Shown piece after piece: positions 10,872-21,029 of a stretch of DNA of 64,000 nt (positions are counted from its first letter, which is position 1; the number at the start of each line of letters is the position of its first letter). The translations under genes and the position numbers were made by a program. The DNA lies in assembly GCA_963703345.1 (NCBI GenBank), contig OY969814.1, forward strand, positions 1,600,001 to 1,664,000. The letters are read 5' to 3'. The DNA is from an uncultured Chloroflexia bacterium. GTDB taxonomy: Bacteria > Chloroflexota > Dehalococcoidia > DSTF01 > JALHUB01. Below the pieces are notes generated by a model, which ran no database searches, had not been told where the DNA came from, and saw only the letters and a list, made by a program, of their open reading frames with translations.

Positions 10872-11537
10872 CTACCTCTTGCGCCGGACGGTCCGCCTGA
10901 CAGTGGGCGGGACGACAGGTTGCGTCGCTGGCTGCGGCGACGAGACAAGGGCGGAGACGAGGGCGCTCAACACCTGCGACGACTCCGTCTGACCCGGCAC
11001 GACATTGGAACGAAGCGCCAGGCCGTCGTGAGCGGCTAGCACGAGACTCGCCGCGACGGCCGGTCGCGCCGCCAGCATGACGAGTCCCTCGCGTTCCATT
11101 CTTTCGAAAGCCTTCTCCAGTAGCCGGGTCCAGCTCACGTAGGCGTCCTGCAGCGAATTCCGCACCTTCTCGTTTCGATGCGACTGCGCCCAGATCTCCG
11201 GCAGAAGCAGCCGCCATTGGGCGTCGGTATCGTCACGATACACCAGCGACTCCACGGCCTTCACCAGAGACAGCGCTGTGTCGTCGCCGAGGTCCTCGAA
11301 CTGGCGTAGCCGGCGCGTATGCTCCTCTATCCAGAGAGACAGGAGCTCCAGGAGCACCTCTTCTTTAGAGTCGAAGTGGAAGTAGTACGCCCCCTTCGAG
11401 TAGCCAGCGGCAAGGGAGATCTCTTCGACCGTCGCGTGGTCGTAGCCTTGCTCAGCAAAGACGCGAAGCGCCGCCTCGACGAGTTTTGTCCTCGTCTGTT
11501 GGCGTTGCTGCTGTCTGGCGGCTCTCGCTTCGTTCAA
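10872..11537 (-). CDS. TetR/AcrR family transcriptional regulator
   Basis: HTH ATVEEISLAAGYSKGAYYFHFDSKEE. Confidence 0.9.
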   Translation of the reverse strand: MNEARAARQQQRQQTRTKLVEAALRVFAEQGYDHATVEEISLAAGYSKGAYYFHFDSKEEVLLELLSLWIEEHTRRLRQFEDLGDDTALSLVKAVESLVYRDDTDAQWRLLLPEIWAQSHRNEKVRNSLQDAYVSWTRLLEKAFERMEREGLVMLAARPAVAASLVLAAHDGLALRSNVVPGQTESSQVLSALVSALVSSPQPATQPVVPPTVRRTVRRKR

Positions 11538-11970
11538 GCCACGATACCTCTGTTTGATTCTCGACCGGTCAGCGCCTCACTGACAGCCCACCCCGACGCG
11601 CCCATCAATCTCCATATGAAGGGCCGAGAAGTGAGTGAGGCTACGCTTTGAACCGGGCCAGCGGAACGGATGCGAATGCAGCGAAAGCGTTGCGAGCCGG
11701 CCTGGAGGACGTGAAACCGAAGAGATCCTGCCTCGGCTAGGCTGCTTGACCACCGCTCATCGCATGCGACGCAGCCAATGGCGTCTGAATCCCACCCCTC
11801 GGTCCCACGATAGCAGGTCGCCGCCAATTCTTCCAAGACGGCGACATCGTCCGTTTGGTAGATTTTTCGGCTCCTCAGGATATGTTTCAGGAAGTGTCCC
11901 GTTATTGCTTTGGTGGTTTGTATAGGCCACCGTCCCGCCACCGCGGGTCAGCAGCTTAACCAGAGAAAAA

Positions 11971-12069
11971 GGCACCGACAAAGGCAAACTCCTCGAAAGA
12001 GGGGGACGCAAAGCCGCAGACCTAAAGCTTGCTGTCGCAGAAGCTATGGCCGCTGGGCTTCCGAAAGCC
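11971..12069 (+). promoter_or_regulatory. c-di-GMP-I (GEMM) riboswitch aptamer
   Basis: GGCAAA-CTCCTC-GAAA-GAGGGG-GACGCAAAGCC...CCTAA...TATGG...GGGCTTCCGAA: GNRA tetraloop, its receptor and the conserved junctions. Confidence 0.92.
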
Positions 12070-12132
12070 TTGCCGAAACGGCGTCGGAGAGGACGCCTTC
12101 GGCGCGCATCAATTCCCCCTTCCCAGGTCCTT

Positions 12133-12170
12133 GCCGTCGTCGGTGACGCTGCCGACGACGGCGCTTTTTG
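12133..12170 (+). terminator. intrinsic terminator, likely the riboswitch expression platform
   Basis: GCCGTCGTCGG/CCGACGACGGC stem followed by GCTTTTTG, between the aptamer and the sigma ATG. Confidence 0.8.
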
Positions 12171-12207
12171 TGCCTCCGGCAGCCTCGATTGAGAAACGGA
12201 GCGCGAG

Positions 12208-12933
12208 ATGAGAGAAGACCGGAATCAGATGATCGTCAACCACCTGCCCTTGGTGGCTTTCGTGGTGAACCGCATGCCCAGCGAGGGTACGGGCGCTGTC
12301 GGCATCGACCGCGAAGACGCCATGAGCTACGGCGTCGAGGGGCTCATCCACGCCGTCGACGCCTATGACCCCGAGCGCGGGACCACCTTCGCCAGCTTTG
12401 CCATCCAGCGGATCCGCGGCTCGGTGCTGGACGCTGTTCGCAAGCAGGATCCGCTGCCGCGCTCACTGCGCAGGAACGCCAAGGAGATCGAGCATGCGTC
12501 GCAGGAGTTGGCGGTACAGTTGGGCCGCTGGCCGACCCGGAAGGAGATCGCATTCAAGCTGGGAATCCCCCTATCGCGGCTCCAGTACCTTCTCAGCCGA
12601 GCAAGCTCGCGGCTTGTCTCTCTCGAGTACTCGCTGGAAGACCGTCCGAACTACGGTGCCGGCCATGCGCTGGACCCGGTGGATGAGGACATCCTATCCG
12701 ACCCGGCGCGCGCGGCTGAGCAAAAAGCGGCGCTCTCGCAGCTTTCGCAGGCCGTGAACTCTCTTTGTCGAAGGGACAGGGACATCCTTCGCCTGCGTTA
12801 CGAGGAGTGCCGGCCATTCCACGAGATCGGCGAGATGCTGGAGCTGTCGGAATCGAGGGTCTGTCAGCTTCACAAGCGGATCATCACCCTTCTGCGTCGG
12901 GAGATGCGTCCCCAACTGGAAGAGGCGGCTTGA
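12208..12933 (+). CDS. FliA/WhiG (sigma-28) family RNA polymerase sigma factor
   Basis: GLIHAVDAYDPERGTTFASFAIQRIRGSVLDAVRKQDPLPRS; region 4 EIGEMLELSESRVCQLH. Confidence 0.9.
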   Translation: MREDRNQMIVNHLPLVAFVVNRMPSEGTGAVGIDREDAMSYGVEGLIHAVDAYDPERGTTFASFAIQRIRGSVLDAVRKQDPLPRSLRRNAKEIEHASQELAVQLGRWPTRKEIAFKLGIPLSRLQYLLSRASSRLVSLEYSLEDRPNYGAGHALDPVDEDILSDPARAAEQKAALSQLSQAVNSLCRRDRDILRLRYEECRPFHEIGEMLELSESRVCQLHKRIITLLRREMRPQLEEAA

Positions 12934-12983
12934 CCTTGAGACGCGCAAGGCTTTGGTCTAGACATTTCGCTCTCGATGCAGAC

Positions 12984-13011
12984 TCATCACTGCGGTCTAA
13001 ACTGCCGATAA
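12984..13011 (+). promoter_or_regulatory. putative sigma-28 promoter for the HD-GYP gene
   Basis: Perfect -10 GCCGATAA at 13004-13011; weak -35 (TCAT, 16 nt upstream). Confidence 0.55.
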
Positions 13012-13174
13012 TACTGCGAAGAAGGATGCTCAACCTCCATCCTGCCTTCGAATCGCTTTCTTCCGGACGGTTGTGTCCTGAGGGGAACGAATGTCCGGTT
13101 ACGGGAATCTGTCTGTTCTGCACGAGATGTAGTGCGCGGGCTGCCCCAAGCGCCCGCGAAGTGAGTCTTATGTC

Positions 13175-14659
13175 ATGCAGAATGGTGTAGAGCCAGAAGA
13201 CGAATCGAACGGCAGCAAGACGGAACGCCCGCCGCTAGTGTTGGTCCATTCCACGGCCGGTCCCGCCGCGCATGCTGACGCTGATCGCCCCCATGTTCCG
13301 GCGCCCACTTCCCTGCCGGTACAGGCGCGCATCTTCTCAATCGTCGTCTTCCTCTCGGGCCTGGCGCTCATAGGCTACTACGCGCCGCAAGTGTCTCATT
13401 CCGGCCTCGTAGGGCTCATCCTACTGGGGCTTATGGCCGCCGCTTCGGAACGGTTGAGCATCATCGTTTACGGCGAGAGCTGGGTCTCAATAAGCTTCGT
13501 CTGTCTCTTCGCCATTGCAGCACTTTACGGCCCCCCAGGCATCGTCGTGGCGACACCCCTCGCGATTCTGAGCCTGCACTTTCCGCGGCGGATGCTTCCA
13601 GATCGGCTGATGTTCAACTCGGGCAACTCGCTCCTCGCCGATGTTGCATCAGCACTGATCCTCACGTCTTTCCTGGCGGGCGGCTCGCAAATCACGCTGT
13701 CCGCAAGAGTGTTTGGCGTTGCCGTAGCTGCCGCGGCCGCGAACTATGGCGTGAGGTCTGTCCTGATATCGACTGTGGGCGGCTTGGCGTCGGGTCAACG
13801 CCCGTGGACGTTCTGGCGGCAGAACTTCCAGTGGCTGCTCCCCCACTACATCCTCTTCGGTTTCCTTGGTTTGGCGCTGGCGGTAGCTTATCAGCAGATC
13901 GGCGTCACCGGCCTGCTCGCCTTTGCCGCTCCGCCGCTGATGATGCGTCTTGCCATGAAGCAATACGTCGACAAGACTACTCGCAGCGTCGCGATGCTGA
14001 GGCGCAAGAACGACCAGCTCTTGAAGGCAAATCGCGAAATCCTGGCGATGAGCGCGCGCCTCAAAGAGACATATGACGCCACCCTGGAGGCGCTAGCGGC
14101 GGCGCTGGACGCCAGGGACAGCGAGACCGGCGGGCACTCCAGCCGCGTCACGGTCTACACAATGGATATGGCGCGGGAACTGGGAATAGAAGAACGGAGC
14201 GACGTGTGGCTGGATATCGAGCGCGCCTCGCTGCTTCACGACGTAGGCAAGATCGGCGTTTCCGACGCTATCCTGAACAAGCCTGGCCCGTTGACCTCTG
14301 AGGAGTGGCAACAGATGAGAAAGCATCCGGCCATAGGCTACGATATGCTGAAGGACGTAAAGTTCCTTTCAACTGCGGCGGAGATCGTCTACGCGCACCA
14401 CGAAAGATTCGACGGCAAAGGCTATCCGGTCGGCCTCCAGGGCGAAGACGTACCCCTAGGCGCGCGCATATTCGCCGTCGCTGACGCTTTCGACGCGATG
14501 ACCTCGAACAGGCCCTATCGCCGCGCCCTTTCGGTGGACAAGGCGCGGGAGGAGATCCTGGGCAATTCGGGCAGTCAGTTTGATCCCAGAGTGGTTCAGG
14601 CTTTCCTGCAGTGCCTTCAGGGCTGGGCGGATGACTTGAGGGAAAGGCAGGCCGCCTAG
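13175..14659 (+). CDS. membrane-anchored HD-GYP c-di-GMP phosphodiesterase
   Basis: Multi-TM N-terminus; GHSSRV, LLHDVGK, HHERFDGKGYP, DAMTSNRPYR all intact; start codon uncertain. Confidence 0.9.
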   Translation: MQNGVEPEDESNGSKTERPPLVLVHSTAGPAAHADADRPHVPAPTSLPVQARIFSIVVFLSGLALIGYYAPQVSHSGLVGLILLGLMAAASERLSIIVYGESWVSISFVCLFAIAALYGPPGIVVATPLAILSLHFPRRMLPDRLMFNSGNSLLADVASALILTSFLAGGSQITLSARVFGVAVAAAAANYGVRSVLISTVGGLASGQRPWTFWRQNFQWLLPHYILFGFLGLALAVAYQQIGVTGLLAFAAPPLMMRLAMKQYVDKTTRSVAMLRRKNDQLLKANREILAMSARLKETYDATLEALAAALDARDSETGGHSSRVTVYTMDMARELGIEERSDVWLDIERASLLHDVGKIGVSDAILNKPGPLTSEEWQQMRKHPAIGYDMLKDVKFLSTAAEIVYAHHERFDGKGYPVGLQGEDVPLGARIFAVADAFDAMTSNRPYRRALSVDKAREEILGNSGSQFDPRVVQAFLQCLQGWADDLRERQAA

Positions 14660-14886
14660 CAGGCAACGAATTGCCTGCGCTCCGATGCGATGACCGTTGA
14701 GGCGAGGAAGAGAGGAGTGTCGTAGGCCCCTGGACGATGACGAGTCTGGCTGGACCTATGCGAATCGTCCGAAGGCCAAGACGGTCGGTGCTATCGAGTC
14801 AATGCCCTGGGTTTGTTGAGCCGGCCCGCTTTTCAGGAGGGCGCGGGCGCCATCTGTAGCTCAAAGAGTCTTCTGAGGCGTCCCTC

Positions 14887-14910
14887 CTAGAACCAGTGCA
14901 TCTTCTTCAT
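14887..14910 (-). CDS. 7-aa micro-ORF MKKMHWF
   Basis: CCAGGAGG-ccacc-ATG AAG AAG ATG CAC TGG TTC TAG, downstream of a strong promoter. Confidence 0.45.
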   Translation of the reverse strand: MKKMHWF

Positions 14911-14985
14911 GGTGGCCTCCTGGCAGTGCGCGGCACACGTGGGTGCCGTCCGGATGTGGTTCCTTCCTCTCCACTCGCCTCAACA

Positions 14986-15007
14986 ACATACCGACCCGTC
15001 GGTATGT
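14986..15007. promoter_or_regulatory. perfect 22-bp operator-like palindrome ACATACCGAC-CC-GTCGGTATGT
   Basis: 10-bp arms directly abutting the -10 box of the minus-strand promoter. Confidence 0.75.
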
Positions 15008-15035
15008 ATTATGACACCCGCTTGTAACTTGTCAA
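15008..15035 (-). promoter_or_regulatory. sigma70 promoter
   Basis: TTGACA-16-CATAAT with extended -10 TG. Confidence 0.75.
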
Positions 15036-15208
15036 GGTTCAAATAGGGCCAACCTGAAGCTCAAAGGGAAACGCAGACCCCAGGATACCCGCGAGGAACC
15101 CGACGGTGCAGGAGACACGCCCTAGTCTAAGGGCACAAGGGCTGGCAGGATCAGCGTTCTTGAGCGACTGGTGGGGGGCGAGTTGCTGTCAGGGATGCGA
15201 GGGAAAGC

Positions 15209-16093
15209 TTATCCAGAGGCGCTCGTCCAGCGTTCGCGGCGGCGGTCTCGGTCTTGCTTCGCGGTCTCCAGATTGTGACGCGCTTGCACGAGCAGGTCGA
15301 GAGGGTTGTTGTCGGCGTCTTGAGCTGAGGCGATTCCGGAGCAGACGCCCACCCATAGCGTTATCGTCTGGCCTTCCACGTTCACGGCAACCGGCTTTCG
15401 CGTCACATAACGCTCCAGGCGGCGCAGGAACTTCGAGGCGTCCTCCTGGCTGCATTCGAGCAGGATCAGAGCGAACTCGTCGTCGCCGAGGCGGGCAGCG
15501 ATGTCGGATGACCGCTTTGTTAGCTCCAGCAGGTCCGCTATGTGTTTGAGTACGGCATCTCCCGCCGCCTCGCCATACGCCTCGTTGACCGAAGACAGGT
15601 TGTTCACGTCGAAAACGGCGAGAGAGAGCGTGGAGGCAGTGCGCTGCATGCGCTTGAACTCGTCGCGAAGGCGCAGCCGGAAGTACTCCTCGCCCGGCAG
15701 ACCGGTCACGTCGTCGCGCATCGACGGCGAGAGCGTCCTTTCCAAGCCTTCCGCCGTCTTCTTCGCCCGGTAGATGGCGAAGAGACTGGTGATTACGACC
15801 GCAACCATCAGAAGCTCGACGGCCGCTGCCAAATGCGGAGCCTGCCTTCTCTCATCGAGGAACGAAAGCGAGGCGCCGGCGAGCACAGATATGAGCGCAG
15901 CGATGAGATATCGCCGCAGATCCTGCCATACCTGCGCCCTGCCCGCCGGTGGGCCTTTGGAAGAGAGCTTCTGCAACGTGAGCGCGCGCGTATCGCGCCA
16001 GTCTTCGCTGGCGTCAGCGCGAAGCTCATCTTGAAGCGGCCTCGGCAGGGAATGAGTATCCTCTGGTTCGGAGATGTGTCTGTCTTCGAGCAA
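15209..16093 (-). CDS. 2-TM protein with degenerate GGDEF domain (GDDEF) and intact RxxD I-site
   Basis: DDVTGLP, DVNNLSSVNEAYG, KRSSDIAARLGDDEF; TTG start with GGAGG. Confidence 0.85.
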   Translation of the reverse strand: MLEDRHISEPEDTHSLPRPLQDELRADASEDWRDTRALTLQKLSSKGPPAGRAQVWQDLRRYLIAALISVLAGASLSFLDERRQAPHLAAAVELLMVAVVITSLFAIYRAKKTAEGLERTLSPSMRDDVTGLPGEEYFRLRLRDEFKRMQRTASTLSLAVFDVNNLSSVNEAYGEAAGDAVLKHIADLLELTKRSSDIAARLGDDEFALILLECSQEDASKFLRRLERYVTRKPVAVNVEGQTITLWVGVCSGIASAQDADNNPLDLLVQARHNLETAKQDRDRRRERWTSASG

Positions 16094-16120
16094 GCCGATC
16101 CTCCAACACCGTCAGTTAGA

Positions 16121-16147
16121 TTATCGACCGGCCGGACGACAGGTTTA
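16121..16147 (-). promoter_or_regulatory. sigma-28 promoter for the GGDEF gene
   Basis: TAAA-N15-GTCGATAA, one mismatch to the TAAA-N15-GCCGATAA consensus. Confidence 0.8.
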
Positions 16148-16249: not shown

Positions 16250-16795
16250 ATGCAAATCGACTGGAGCAAGACGATAGACGATATCCTGTCGCACAAGATA
16301 TCGTGCCTTCGCTGCGGCCGCTTGGAGACGTCCGTTTGTGTTGGCTATTCGCGATCGCCGGCGGTGTCTGACTACGCGCCGCGCTGCCTCGATTGCAGTC
16401 GACGAGAAGGATGCGACGCGCGGAAGCTAGTCGTTCTCTGCCAATCCTGCGCGGAGGAGTTGCATGTCCGGGCGAAGCAGGCGGACGAAGAAGCCATGAT
16501 GGCCCTGCTTATCGACGACTGCCGCAAGGACCTCGAGGACTGCCTCGACTACCTCACCGACTACTGGCAAGAAGAGCTGAACGTCGACCCGGACGATGAG
16601 GAGCACCGGCTGGAAGGGGTTGCGCCAGACGTGTTTGCCGAGGAGAGCGCCTGGCGGGCCCGCCTTGAAGAAGAGTACTTGTCGTATCACCGCTGGTTCC
16701 GGGAGCGCGGCCTTCGCCTGCCTGAGCCGGGTTGGCGCTCCGACTACGTCGAAGAGATCGTCGATCTCGGTTACACCACGCTACTGGGAGACTAA
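16250..16795 (+). CDS. hypothetical protein with Cys-rich (Zn-binding) N-terminus and acidic helical C-terminus
   Basis: CLRC, CLDC, CQSC; GAGG RBS and its own promoter. Confidence 0.7.
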   Translation: MQIDWSKTIDDILSHKISCLRCGRLETSVCVGYSRSPAVSDYAPRCLDCSRREGCDARKLVVLCQSCAEELHVRAKQADEEAMMALLIDDCRKDLEDCLDYLTDYWQEELNVDPDDEEHRLEGVAPDVFAEESAWRARLEEEYLSYHRWFRERGLRLPEPGWRSDYVEEIVDLGYTTLLGD

Positions 16796-19328: not shown

Positions 19329-20411
19329 CTACTGAATCGCGTGTAAACGCTTGCCGTTGGGTTGGTAGACTCTGTACAGGTCTGCCTTGTTGAGGGCCAA
19401 TAGACGGCAAAGATCATCGTGAGAATAGCCCAAGCTGTCACAATGATATGCGACTATATCACGCAATAACTCGGGCGGCTCTGAGGGCGGATCAAGTTCT
19501 TCTGGTTCTCGCAAGCGATAACCTGCTTTGCTCAGTTGCATCATCATACGCTGCTTCTCATACGCTGAGATTGCGCCCGCGGTAGAAGCCCGCATTATTA
19601 GCGCTTGCATCGACATCTTCCAGTATTCCTTGAGTGGCGCGAGCCTTTTGAGGCTGAGGTTGAAAAACTGAGGCCTGATCTCATGCTTTGGTGCTAAAAA
19701 CTCGCCAGCGAATAGATGGGCGTCCGGTTCCATCTGTGGATACGAGCCAGAGGTAGAGTGCATGACTATATGCCCTAACTCGTGGGCGAGTGCAAAACGC
19801 CAGCGATCAGGGGGAATCTTGGAACTCATATAGAAGATCGGAGGCGTATTCGACCCCCATCGGCTGAAACCATCAACATCAGGTGTACTGAAATCGCAAC
19901 TAAGAACTATTCCGCCAGCAGATTCGATGACCTTAGTCATGCTGAAAATTGGCCCTGGCGGAATTCGCAACGTTGCTCTCACAGTGCGCGCTATCTTCTC
20001 CGGATTTCCCTCGAATTCGTTTATGTCCAGCACAGGAAATGGCTCTTGGGGCATCTTATCCCACGAGCGTAAGAGAGCCGCTATTTCGAAACGTCGGATT
20101 TCGGCTTCGGCGTGAATCCTATGAAGGGCCATAGCACTCGCCCTTGCCTTCTTCCGGTGATATATCTCGGTAATCCCAGGTCCACCAACCTCCTCTCGCC
20201 GCAAAAAGAAACCGGCTGGATAGTCGAGGGCTTCAGCCAGCGCGCTCAATCTGTCGCCCGATAAAGGCTCAAGGCCGGTCTCTACTTTTGAGACCGTTCC
20301 CTGAACCCATCTGAGTTTGACGGCAAGTGCGGCTTGTGAGATTCCTCTAGACTGGCGCGCCAGCGTGATCATTTCGGGATTGGCCCGTTCGGGCGTAGGT
20401 TCTGCTGGCAA
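19329..20411 (-). CDS. XRE HTH fused to ImmA/IrrE metallopeptidase
   Basis: RQSRGISQAALA...VSKVETG; RFALAHELGH; low GC. Confidence 0.9.
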   Translation of the reverse strand: MPAEPTPERANPEMITLARQSRGISQAALAVKLRWVQGTVSKVETGLEPLSGDRLSALAEALDYPAGFFLRREEVGGPGITEIYHRKKARASAMALHRIHAEAEIRRFEIAALLRSWDKMPQEPFPVLDINEFEGNPEKIARTVRATLRIPPGPIFSMTKVIESAGGIVLSCDFSTPDVDGFSRWGSNTPPIFYMSSKIPPDRWRFALAHELGHIVMHSTSGSYPQMEPDAHLFAGEFLAPKHEIRPQFFNLSLKRLAPLKEYWKMSMQALIMRASTAGAISAYEKQRMMMQLSKAGYRLREPEELDPPSEPPELLRDIVAYHCDSLGYSHDDLCRLLALNKADLYRVYQPNGKRLHAIQ

Positions 20412-20414
20412 ACT

Positions 20415-21029
20415 CTAGATTGCCTTTCCCATGTACTCCGAGTAGTCATCGTAAGCATAAACGTCGGTCTGTTGTCCCAACTGCGCGGGAAACCGACGTT
20501 GGATGCCGAAGGTCTTTAGATCGAGCGGAGAACCAAGAACCTGCCATATCCAGTCGTTGACGGCGGTTACCACGCCATTGGGAAGCGTGACGAAGGCGCC
20601 AGTGACCACGGCACCAGTGACATCCAGTGTATAGCCAAATTCGAGGCGTCCAATCTTAGGCAGGGTTGCAAGCGCAGCCTGCTGTACCCAGCGACGCGCC
20701 CTTCGAGTCGGGTAGTTATGCGATTCCAAGCCCGCGCCCAACCGTTTGAAACGGAGAATCACAGTCTCGTCGAAAACCATGTATCTTTGCAGACTATCCA
20801 CAAGGAAAGCCACCCCCGGATCATCACTGAGGAGCTGCTGCGCGTGGGAATAGAAGCTCTGATTCACGATAATGGCACGAGCGGACTCGTCTAGGATGAG
20901 GTGTAGATGTTTGCAGTCTTCGCGCCAAGTTTGCCAGGCCTTGCCGAATGCAGTTACCAACTGGGGCATCCGTGGCCTAAGGACATCCTGCGATTCTGGA
21001 AGGGAGATGATCGAGGCGAACGTAGTCAT
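20415..21029 (-). CDS. hypothetical protein, putative toxin/effector partner of the XRE-peptidase
   Basis: AAGGAG RBS, 3-nt gap to the XRE gene, low GC. Confidence 0.7.
   Translation of the reverse strand: MTTFASIISLPESQDVLRPRMPQLVTAFGKAWQTWREDCKHLHLILDESARAIIVNQSFYSHAQQLLSDDPGVAFLVDSLQRYMVFDETVILRFKRLGAGLESHNYPTRRARRWVQQAALATLPKIGRLEFGYTLDVTGAVVTGAFVTLPNGVVTAVNDWIWQVLGSPLDLKTFGIQRRFPAQLGQQTDVYAYDDYSEYMGKAI

Follow-up and report, generated by a model that had tools for sequence, protein, structure and literature searches.

A c-di-GMP-I riboswitch ahead of a stand-alone FliA/WhiG-like sigma gene and an adjacent HD-GYP gene in a Dehalococcoidia bacterium: a predicted feedback circuit

The stretch of DNA analysed here (the window) covers 64,000 nucleotides (nt) of the genome of an uncultured Dehalococcoidia bacterium (G000:C1:1600001-1664000), which consists of a single contig of 2.28 Mb and is 95.9% complete. 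It carries a cassette in which an aptamer of a class responsive to the messenger c-di-GMP (cyclic di-guanosine monophosphate) is followed by an intrinsic terminator, a gene for a FliA/WhiG-like sigma factor and a gene for an HD-GYP protein, and then by a convergent gene for a GGDEF-domain protein. An earlier interpretation made from the nucleotide letters alone (the sequence-only reading) had named these parts, together with two sigma-28-type promoter motifs, and all of them were located in the order given. The features are as follows.

11878..11905, plus strand: predicted promoter of the extracytoplasmic function (ECF) type, BldN-like, G[TA][TA]A[CT]-N16-CGTT, with a degenerate -35 in the window genome
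11973..12065, plus strand: c-di-GMP-I aptamer (Rfam covariance model RF01051)
12131..12145, plus strand: switching strand, i.e., the 5' arm of the terminator and the alternative partner of the aptamer 5' strand 11973-11987 (predicted antiterminator)
12132..12169, plus strand: intrinsic terminator, a computed hairpin (12132-12163) of 14 pairs with a T run
12208..12933, plus strand: FliA/WhiG-like (sigma-28-type) sigma factor, 241 amino acids (aa), one of two paralogs
12983..13011, plus strand: HD-GYP promoter, sigma-28-type by motif and conservation, with a perfect -10 (GCCGATAA) and a weak -35 starting with CT
13175..14659, plus strand: membrane HD-GYP protein, predicted phosphodiesterase, 494 aa, with a putative MASE9-type N-terminal domain whose modelled fold resembles the S-component of energy-coupling factor transporters
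15209..16093, minus strand: degenerate GGDEF-domain membrane protein, 294 aa, with GDDEF and an RxxD site
16121..16147, minus strand: GGDEF promoter, sigma-28-type by motif match (TAAA-N15-GTCGATAA)

Relatives were sampled by a protein search with the sigma factor, which gave a match in all 40 genomes, mostly with two paralogs per genome; the loci fall into five families, f1 to f5. The ortholog group of the sigma factor (at least 53% identity) is restricted to the order, and in a 301-genome sample of the class, matches outside the order reach at most 43%. This tally and the 58-genome flagellin tally given below both include one unpublished genome (G052), of which no sequence was used.

The aptamer matches the Rfam model over its full length (model positions 1-87) at 77.9 bits against a gathering cut-off of 35 bits, which bears out the class assigned to it by the sequence-only reading. 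An aptamer of the c-di-GMP-I clan stands ahead of the sigma gene in 28 of the 29 best-scoring relative loci, and at the one locus without it a contig end truncates the sequence. The three ligand positions (G20, A47 and C92) are occupied by G, A and C in all 31 parsed aptamers; we take the G at 11983 to be the G20 equivalent, with the mapping of these numbers onto the sequence being our assumption. The A at position 20 that defines the GEMM-Ib (c-AMP-GMP) type was found in none of the 31, all of which have G. G20 strongly favours c-di-GMP in the Vc2 model (PMC6140456), so c-di-GMP is the predicted ligand in preference to 3',3'-cGAMP, the cyclic dinucleotide of GMP and AMP.

The aptamer 5' strand (11973-11987) contains the G20-equivalent base and is complementary to the terminator 5' arm (12131-12145). 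In families f1 and f3, the duplex of the two strands reaches -20 to -29 kcal/mol at all 18 loci and is equalled or bettered by no more than 3 of 200 shuffles; in 17 of the 18 it overlaps the terminator arm. A compensatory change from C-G to U-A is seen in three loci (L047, L063 and L064), and the same pair shows one wobble and one mismatch elsewhere. When the nascent transcript of the window was folded with the terminator 3' arm not yet made, the antiterminator fold lay at -98.7 kcal/mol versus -85.2 kcal/mol for the aptamer-enforced fold, a gap of 13.5 kcal/mol. In the complete leader, aptamer and terminator can coexist (-106.1 vs -108.6 kcal/mol) and the terminator dominates. The expression platform is, in silico, exclusive with the aptamer. 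Given the pairing in 18 of 18 loci, we predict an OFF switch in the f1/f3 lineage and, through the phosphodiesterase, a positive loop. Riboswitch control of the sigma gene, as proposed earlier, is supported in silico by the conservation of the aptamer and by this pairing. The sequence-only reading had made the outcome, a bistable switch or a pulse generator, depend on polarity; the polarity now comes out in silico as OFF in the f1/f3 lineage, and the sequence would allow either outcome.

The sigma factor possesses Pfam regions 2, 3 and 4 and lacks region 1. Among 70 families, it is matched best by the NCBIfam family FliA_WhiG (TIGR02479) at 185.5 bits, and because this is about 4 bits under the curated cut-off of 189.6, it is filed as FliA/WhiG-like; its nearest solved structures are WhiG and FliA. 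Earlier it had been observed that no flagellar or anti-sigma gene lies next to it, which holds and extends to the whole genome, where no flagellin and no FlgM over the cut-off were found; on these grounds, the factor is not placed in the flagellar FliA/WhiG1 class. Across the order, a single genome out of 58 has flagellin. A motif pattern for RsiG, used without an RsiG profile, gave nothing in the 2005 gene calls. WhiG contacts c-di-GMP through K57, G61 and R62 (10.64898/2026.01.14.699351). In an alignment to the solved WhiG these residues are A, N and R in the sigma factor, i.e., two of the three contacts are lacking, and the K57-equivalent lysine is missing in all sigma orthologs aligned for display.

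The sigma-28-type promoter consensus has the form TAAA-N15-GCCGATAA. Ahead of the HD-GYP gene, GCCGATAA is present at 13004-13011. The 8-mer alone is weak evidence, with 5 occurrences in the window versus 1.3 expected and 117 copies in a genome-wide scan, and this -10 counts because it is conserved: in 37 of 37 loci with HD-GYP, the window included, the first 135 nt after the sigma gene contain a sigma-28-type -10, compared with 2/37 and 1/37 in controls. At the -35 of this promoter, TAAA is found in only 1 of 37 loci and is absent in the window. Of the promoter claimed earlier for this gene, the perfect -10 therefore stands, whereas the consensus TAAA is missing. The second motif, TAAA-N15-GTCGATAA, lies at 16147-16121, where the sequence-only reading had placed it. 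It is the sole match in the window and occurs in 0 of 100 shuffles, and its TAAA is kept in all six same-genus relatives having upstream sequence. A 13-codon open reading frame with a weak Shine-Dalgarno sequence was also observed in the HD-GYP leader (13091-13132), but close relatives do not share its start codon.

The HD-GYP protein has the motifs HD, HHExxDGxGYP and RxY[K/R] all intact, the meaning of the last being taken from 10.1101/2021.11.05.467447, and is predicted to be a c-di-GMP phosphodiesterase. Of 29 aligned orthologs, 15 match MASE9 (PF20972) at E<=1, with 5e-9 as the best value; the protein of the window has no such match. For the membrane domain, Foldseek returned nothing at E 0.001; in an exhaustive structure search with a model of the membrane part (predicted local distance difference test score, pLDDT, of 85), the top 15 hits were S-component-like chains with Z from 14.5 to 9.6. 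For a helical bundle such a ranking is suggestive only, and it suggests a ligand pocket. In the GGDEF protein and its relatives, the site reads GDDEF in 14 and ADDEF in 1 of 15 parsed proteins (3 of 18 were not parsed), i.e., the active GG(D/E)EF form was not found among them, and RxxD stands five residues before the degenerate motif in 15 of 15. The protein is thus likely a c-di-GMP receptor, in agreement with the role first assigned to it. Among 38 extended loci, 17 relatives have its gene and 10, in which the next gene directly adjoins, do not, the remainder being cut short; on this count the gene is dispensable. Crude patterns for PilZ and MshEN gave nothing in the gene calls.

Taken together, we propose a stand-alone, non-flagellar sigma-28-type factor gated by RNA, OFF at high c-di-GMP, that forms a positive loop through the adjacent phosphodiesterase and is the hub of a wider regulon, and we assign this reading a probability of about 0.6. 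At high c-di-GMP, the ligand-bound aptamer would leave the terminator to form and little sigma factor would be made; at low c-di-GMP, read-through would allow its synthesis. The sigma factor would then transcribe the gene of the adjacent predicted phosphodiesterase, which would keep c-di-GMP low. The RNA would take the role that RsiG with c-di-GMP has for WhiG in Actinomycetota. The predicted sigma-28 regulon around this hub would include cyclases, phosphodiesterases, the degenerate GGDEF receptor, a Tad pilus operon and a BldN-like ECF sigma factor, and as the promoter type of this ECF factor stands upstream of the riboswitch, a loop from ECF to sigma-28 and back to ECF is predicted.

Contrary to the sequence-only reading, the circuit is not self-contained. 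Matches to GGDEF number 16 in the genome and those to HD_5 number 12; there are also three c-di-GMP-I aptamers and two FliA/WhiG paralogs, and the same -10 is found at other genes. In a regulon scan based on our own gene calls, 1215 of 2005 genes had at least 60 nt upstream; the -10 lies ahead of 5 of 21 c-di-GMP genes versus 27 of 1194 others (p 1.4e-4), or 3 of 19 when the two focal genes are left out (p 0.01). Two -10 sites precede a gene for a GGDEF+HD-GYP hybrid. Among relatives, a -10 stands ahead of cpaB (Tad operon) in 8 of the 9 loci reaching it, and ahead of the ECF sigma gene in 13 of 16 f1 loci and 0 of 14 others. The best solved match of the ECF sigma factor is 6dxo, presumably BldN.

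Several further arrangements were observed elsewhere in the genome. At L108 (G000:C1:1571046-1578007), a BldN-like ECF gene, a short anti-sigma-like gene and the Tad operon each stand behind a sigma-28-type -10, and 3 kb upstream of this locus a gene for a secreted repeat protein is preceded by the third c-di-GMP-I aptamer. An archaellum-like cluster (G000:C1:1769388-1775869), whose first gene is archaellin-like by eye, is divergent from a response regulator gene having TAAA-N15-CCCGATAA. At G000:C1:1969159-1970534, a gene resembling, by eye, one for trehalose-phosphate synthesis has a perfect TAAA-N15-GCCGATAA ahead of it.

The second FliA/WhiG paralog adjoins csrA in 17 of 20 loci and shows no aptamer pattern. 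In the present flagellin-free genome it lies at G000:C1:187153-189467 with csrA near, and the region has the look of a flagellar-cluster remnant. Both paralogs are retained across the order, and region 4.2 differs between them.

A number of observations weigh against the RNA-gated positive loop. The relatives are kin, so locus counts overstate independence. Family f2 retains the sigma and HD-GYP genes without the aptamer, the antiterminator test fails in 6/6 f4 and 4/7 f5 loci (which have other platforms), and f5 is without a T-run terminator. At equilibrium, the full-length leader is in the terminator form (pair probability 0.63-0.94), so the switch must be kinetic. With 12 HD_5 and 16 GGDEF matches, the global pool may depend on more than this one phosphodiesterase. 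A possible negative arm is found 16 kb off, as a conserved unit in which a sigma-28-type promoter and a second aptamer stand together with the gene of an intact GGDEF cyclase (L002/L140, G000:C1:1595437-1596527). This arm is the core of an alternative that we consider possible and clearly less probable than the positive loop: with the same OFF switch, the sigma factor would also transcribe intact cyclases, and the delayed rise of c-di-GMP would shut the sigma gene off, making the circuit a pulse generator or homeostat. The sigma-28-type -10 ahead of the switch-plus-GGDEF unit (at G000 1596527) is consistent with it, as are the -10 upstream in 9 of 16 orthologous switch-cyclase loci, the intact GGDEF motif in 16 of 16 and the two -10 sites ahead of the hybrid gene; but the cyclase has its own aptamer and, if that is an OFF switch too, would cap its own output, and of the targets, the phosphodiesterase alone stays beside the sigma gene across all five families.

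Conserved promoters at both flanking genes agree with the earlier proposal that the sigma factor transcribes the phosphodiesterase and the receptor, but the second paralog, which at 201.8 bits is over the FliA_WhiG cut-off and outscores the sigma factor of the cassette, could read the same promoters. If the GCCGATAA promoters were read mainly by that paralog, the riboswitch would control the sigma gene and, by read-through, the HD-GYP gene, and the sigma factor would have other targets. The retention of both paralogs and their different region 4.2 would suit this arrangement, and so would the two types of -35, TAAA at the GGDEF and cpaB genes and a CTAC-like one at the ECF gene and part of the HD-GYP genes, which also weigh against the positive loop. 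Between the sigma and HD-GYP genes there is only a weak 5-pair hairpin, so that read-through may drive HD-GYP. On the other hand, a separate internal promoter is kept in all 37 loci, and the paralog's own upstream -10 (9 of 20 loci vs 1 of 20 in the control) fits a downstream role; we regard this explanation as improbable, a little more so than the pulse generator. Very unlikely in our view is an ON switch or a 3',3'-cGAMP sensor. ON and OFF versions of near-identical aptamers do occur (PMC9262584), but the G at position 20, the retained RxY[K/R] of the HD-GYP protein and the coexistence of aptamer and terminator, like that in the OFF switch Cd1, argue against this reading.

Upstream of the switch, the BldN-like promoter is found in 37 of 38 loci: 35 were recognised in the first pass (3 with a 17-nt spacer), two were added, and one locus is cut by a contig end. 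It resembles, weakly in the window genome, the BldN consensus taken from PMC2375139. In f2 (L084-L102, e.g., L084:1389-1465), a branched RNA replaces the aptamer behind the same promoter. Its outer stem is invariant (17 of 19 loci by pattern, two by eye), and the sequence downstream can pair with the RNA's 5' strand near the Shine-Dalgarno sequence. Seven loci compared with Rfam gave nothing at E<=5, and one copy used as a DNA query found one other copy at E<0.001 in 15 genomes. Automatic alignment backs only the 8-pair outer stem, with one pair showing a two-sided change. The 5' core may resemble a CsrA site and the J2/3 part of the aptamer. Some f2 genomes carry extra sigma-28-like copies (L103, L104, L106 and L107), two of which share a short upstream motif unlike either RNA.

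The cassette is flanked and interrupted by further features.

10872..11537, minus strand: TetR-family regulator with a BetI-type C-terminus (Pfam), divergent from the riboswitch and syntenic in most relatives outside f2
14887..14910, minus strand: gene of 7 codons (MKKMHWF), conserved among relatives and preceded by a strong Shine-Dalgarno sequence
14986..15007, no strand: palindromic operator-like site, the full palindrome being single-copy in the genome
15008..15035, minus strand: sigma-70-type promoter of the small gene, 11/12 match
16250..16795, plus strand: cysteine-rich 181-aa protein with its own sigma-70-type promoter, syntenic across the order

In the 38 extended loci, the usual order is TetR, switch, sigma and HD-GYP. 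The 181-aa protein is 56-93% identical across the order. Its candidacy as an anti-sigma factor was rejected as unsupported: only a hypothetical cluster of Chloroflexota was matched, and recognition was below the mark. A gene for a peptidase-like protein with an XRE-type helix-turn-helix domain and its neighbour (19329-21029, minus strand) have, by eye, the look of a mobile-element remnant.

The small gene lies between the HD-GYP and GGDEF genes; like the BldN-like promoter and the f2 RNA, it had escaped the sequence-only reading. With a Shine-Dalgarno sequence and a Trp near the end, it is present in 32 of 37 loci, compared with 2 of 37 on the opposite strand and 31 of 576 intergenic strands used as controls; a contig end removed one locus from the count, and another was left out as the wrong paralog. 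Three further loci have a form without Trp, found by eye, and the two loci without the gene have HD-GYP lost or broken, for which a shared deletion would also account. The products in relatives have 6-8 aa or are signal-peptide-like with 28-34 aa, the long forms resembling a signal peptide with a short tail. The palindrome overlaps the promoter of the small gene and, in most relatives, adjoins a second TetR gene, which is lost in the window genome. In f1 and f3, the 5' end of the small gene's transcript of about 300 nt (14660-15035, minus strand) pairs with the 3' end along about 20 nt; in f4 the transcript is only about 110 nt. A type I toxin, considered for this pairing and for the hydrophobic long forms, was rejected, as the 6-8 aa forms do not fit.

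A more far-reaching scheme can be drawn as a peptide-triggered cell-state switch, in which the small peptide would set c-di-GMP as a signal to the S-component-like MASE9 domain in the HD-GYP protein, which senses it. A BldN-like/WhiG-like sigma cascade that governs Tad pili and c-di-GMP enzymes would then be flipped through the riboswitch, and in f2 the other RNA would take the place of the riboswitch. We hold this scheme as speculative and improbable. When the MASE9 domain was modelled in complex with a long form of the peptide, the score was 0.02 (mark 0.32), which speaks neither for nor against the pair. If true, the scheme would provide the first ligand for MASE9 and connect signalling by a peptide with c-di-GMP and with a sigma factor gated by RNA.

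Each link of the proposed circuit has a precedent. In E. coli, FliA is gated by FlgM, and pdeH and ycgR are unlinked to fliA. In Clostridioides difficile, the c-di-GMP-I OFF riboswitch Cd1 (Cdi-1-3) precedes the flgB operon, which includes sigD (PMC6366702; PMC9262584). Aptamer class, predicted polarity and a sigma-28 gene under the riboswitch are shared with the window, and the kinetic pattern of the leader matches that described for Cd1 (PMC9262584); however, sigD lies within a 23-kb flagellar operon, whereas in the window the sigma gene comes first, flagellar genes are absent and a phosphodiesterase gene with a matching -10 follows. FliA of E. coli transcribes the phosphodiesterase gene pdeH and the c-di-GMP receptor gene ycgR (PMC8669469), which resembles the predicted pair of targets here, although those are EAL and PilZ proteins and no riboswitch is involved. 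In Streptomyces and Rubrobacter, WhiG is controlled by the RsiG-(c-di-GMP)-WhiG switch, and predicted WhiG regulons in Rubrobacter and across Actinomycetota hold pili and diguanylate cyclase and phosphodiesterase genes, with feedback proposed (PMC8325347; 10.64898/2026.01.14.699351). There too, c-di-GMP represses a non-flagellar sigma-28, and the predicted regulon of the window likewise includes pilus and cyclase/phosphodiesterase genes; the gate in the window would be RNA acting at transcription instead of an anti-sigma factor, K57 and G61 are not conserved, and the RsiG motif was not found in the gene calls. The word riboswitch is absent from the main text of both papers. In Streptomyces, BldD-(c-di-GMP) represses bldN and whiG (PMC6101532; PMC2375139), and HdgA is a MASE9-HD-GYP protein (10.1101/2021.11.05.467447); a BldN-like ECF, a WhiG-like sigma and a putative MASE9-HD-GYP architecture occur in the window genome, but their order and wiring differ.

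The arrangement of these known parts was not found in the literature searched. The searches, which covered neither supplements nor the gene-context tables for GEMM that could list such loci, found no riboswitch acting directly on the gene of a non-flagellar sigma-28 to which a phosphodiesterase gene is linked, and nothing joining riboswitch, c-di-GMP and Dehalococcoidia. Within this scope, the result agrees with the sequence-only reading, which knew of no such locus described in Chloroflexota.

In addition to the anti-sigma factor of Actinomycetota and the control of a whole operon in C. difficile, the findings suggest a third route by which c-di-GMP may gate sigma-28: an RNA that acts directly on the sigma gene, in a lineage whose flagella have been lost. 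Two concrete candidates for new parts in signalling emerge, namely the small gene and the f2 RNA. With a leader of about 300 nt, the sigma gene and the two promoters form a set that is small and testable without culturing the host, and would constitute a portable c-di-GMP feedback module.

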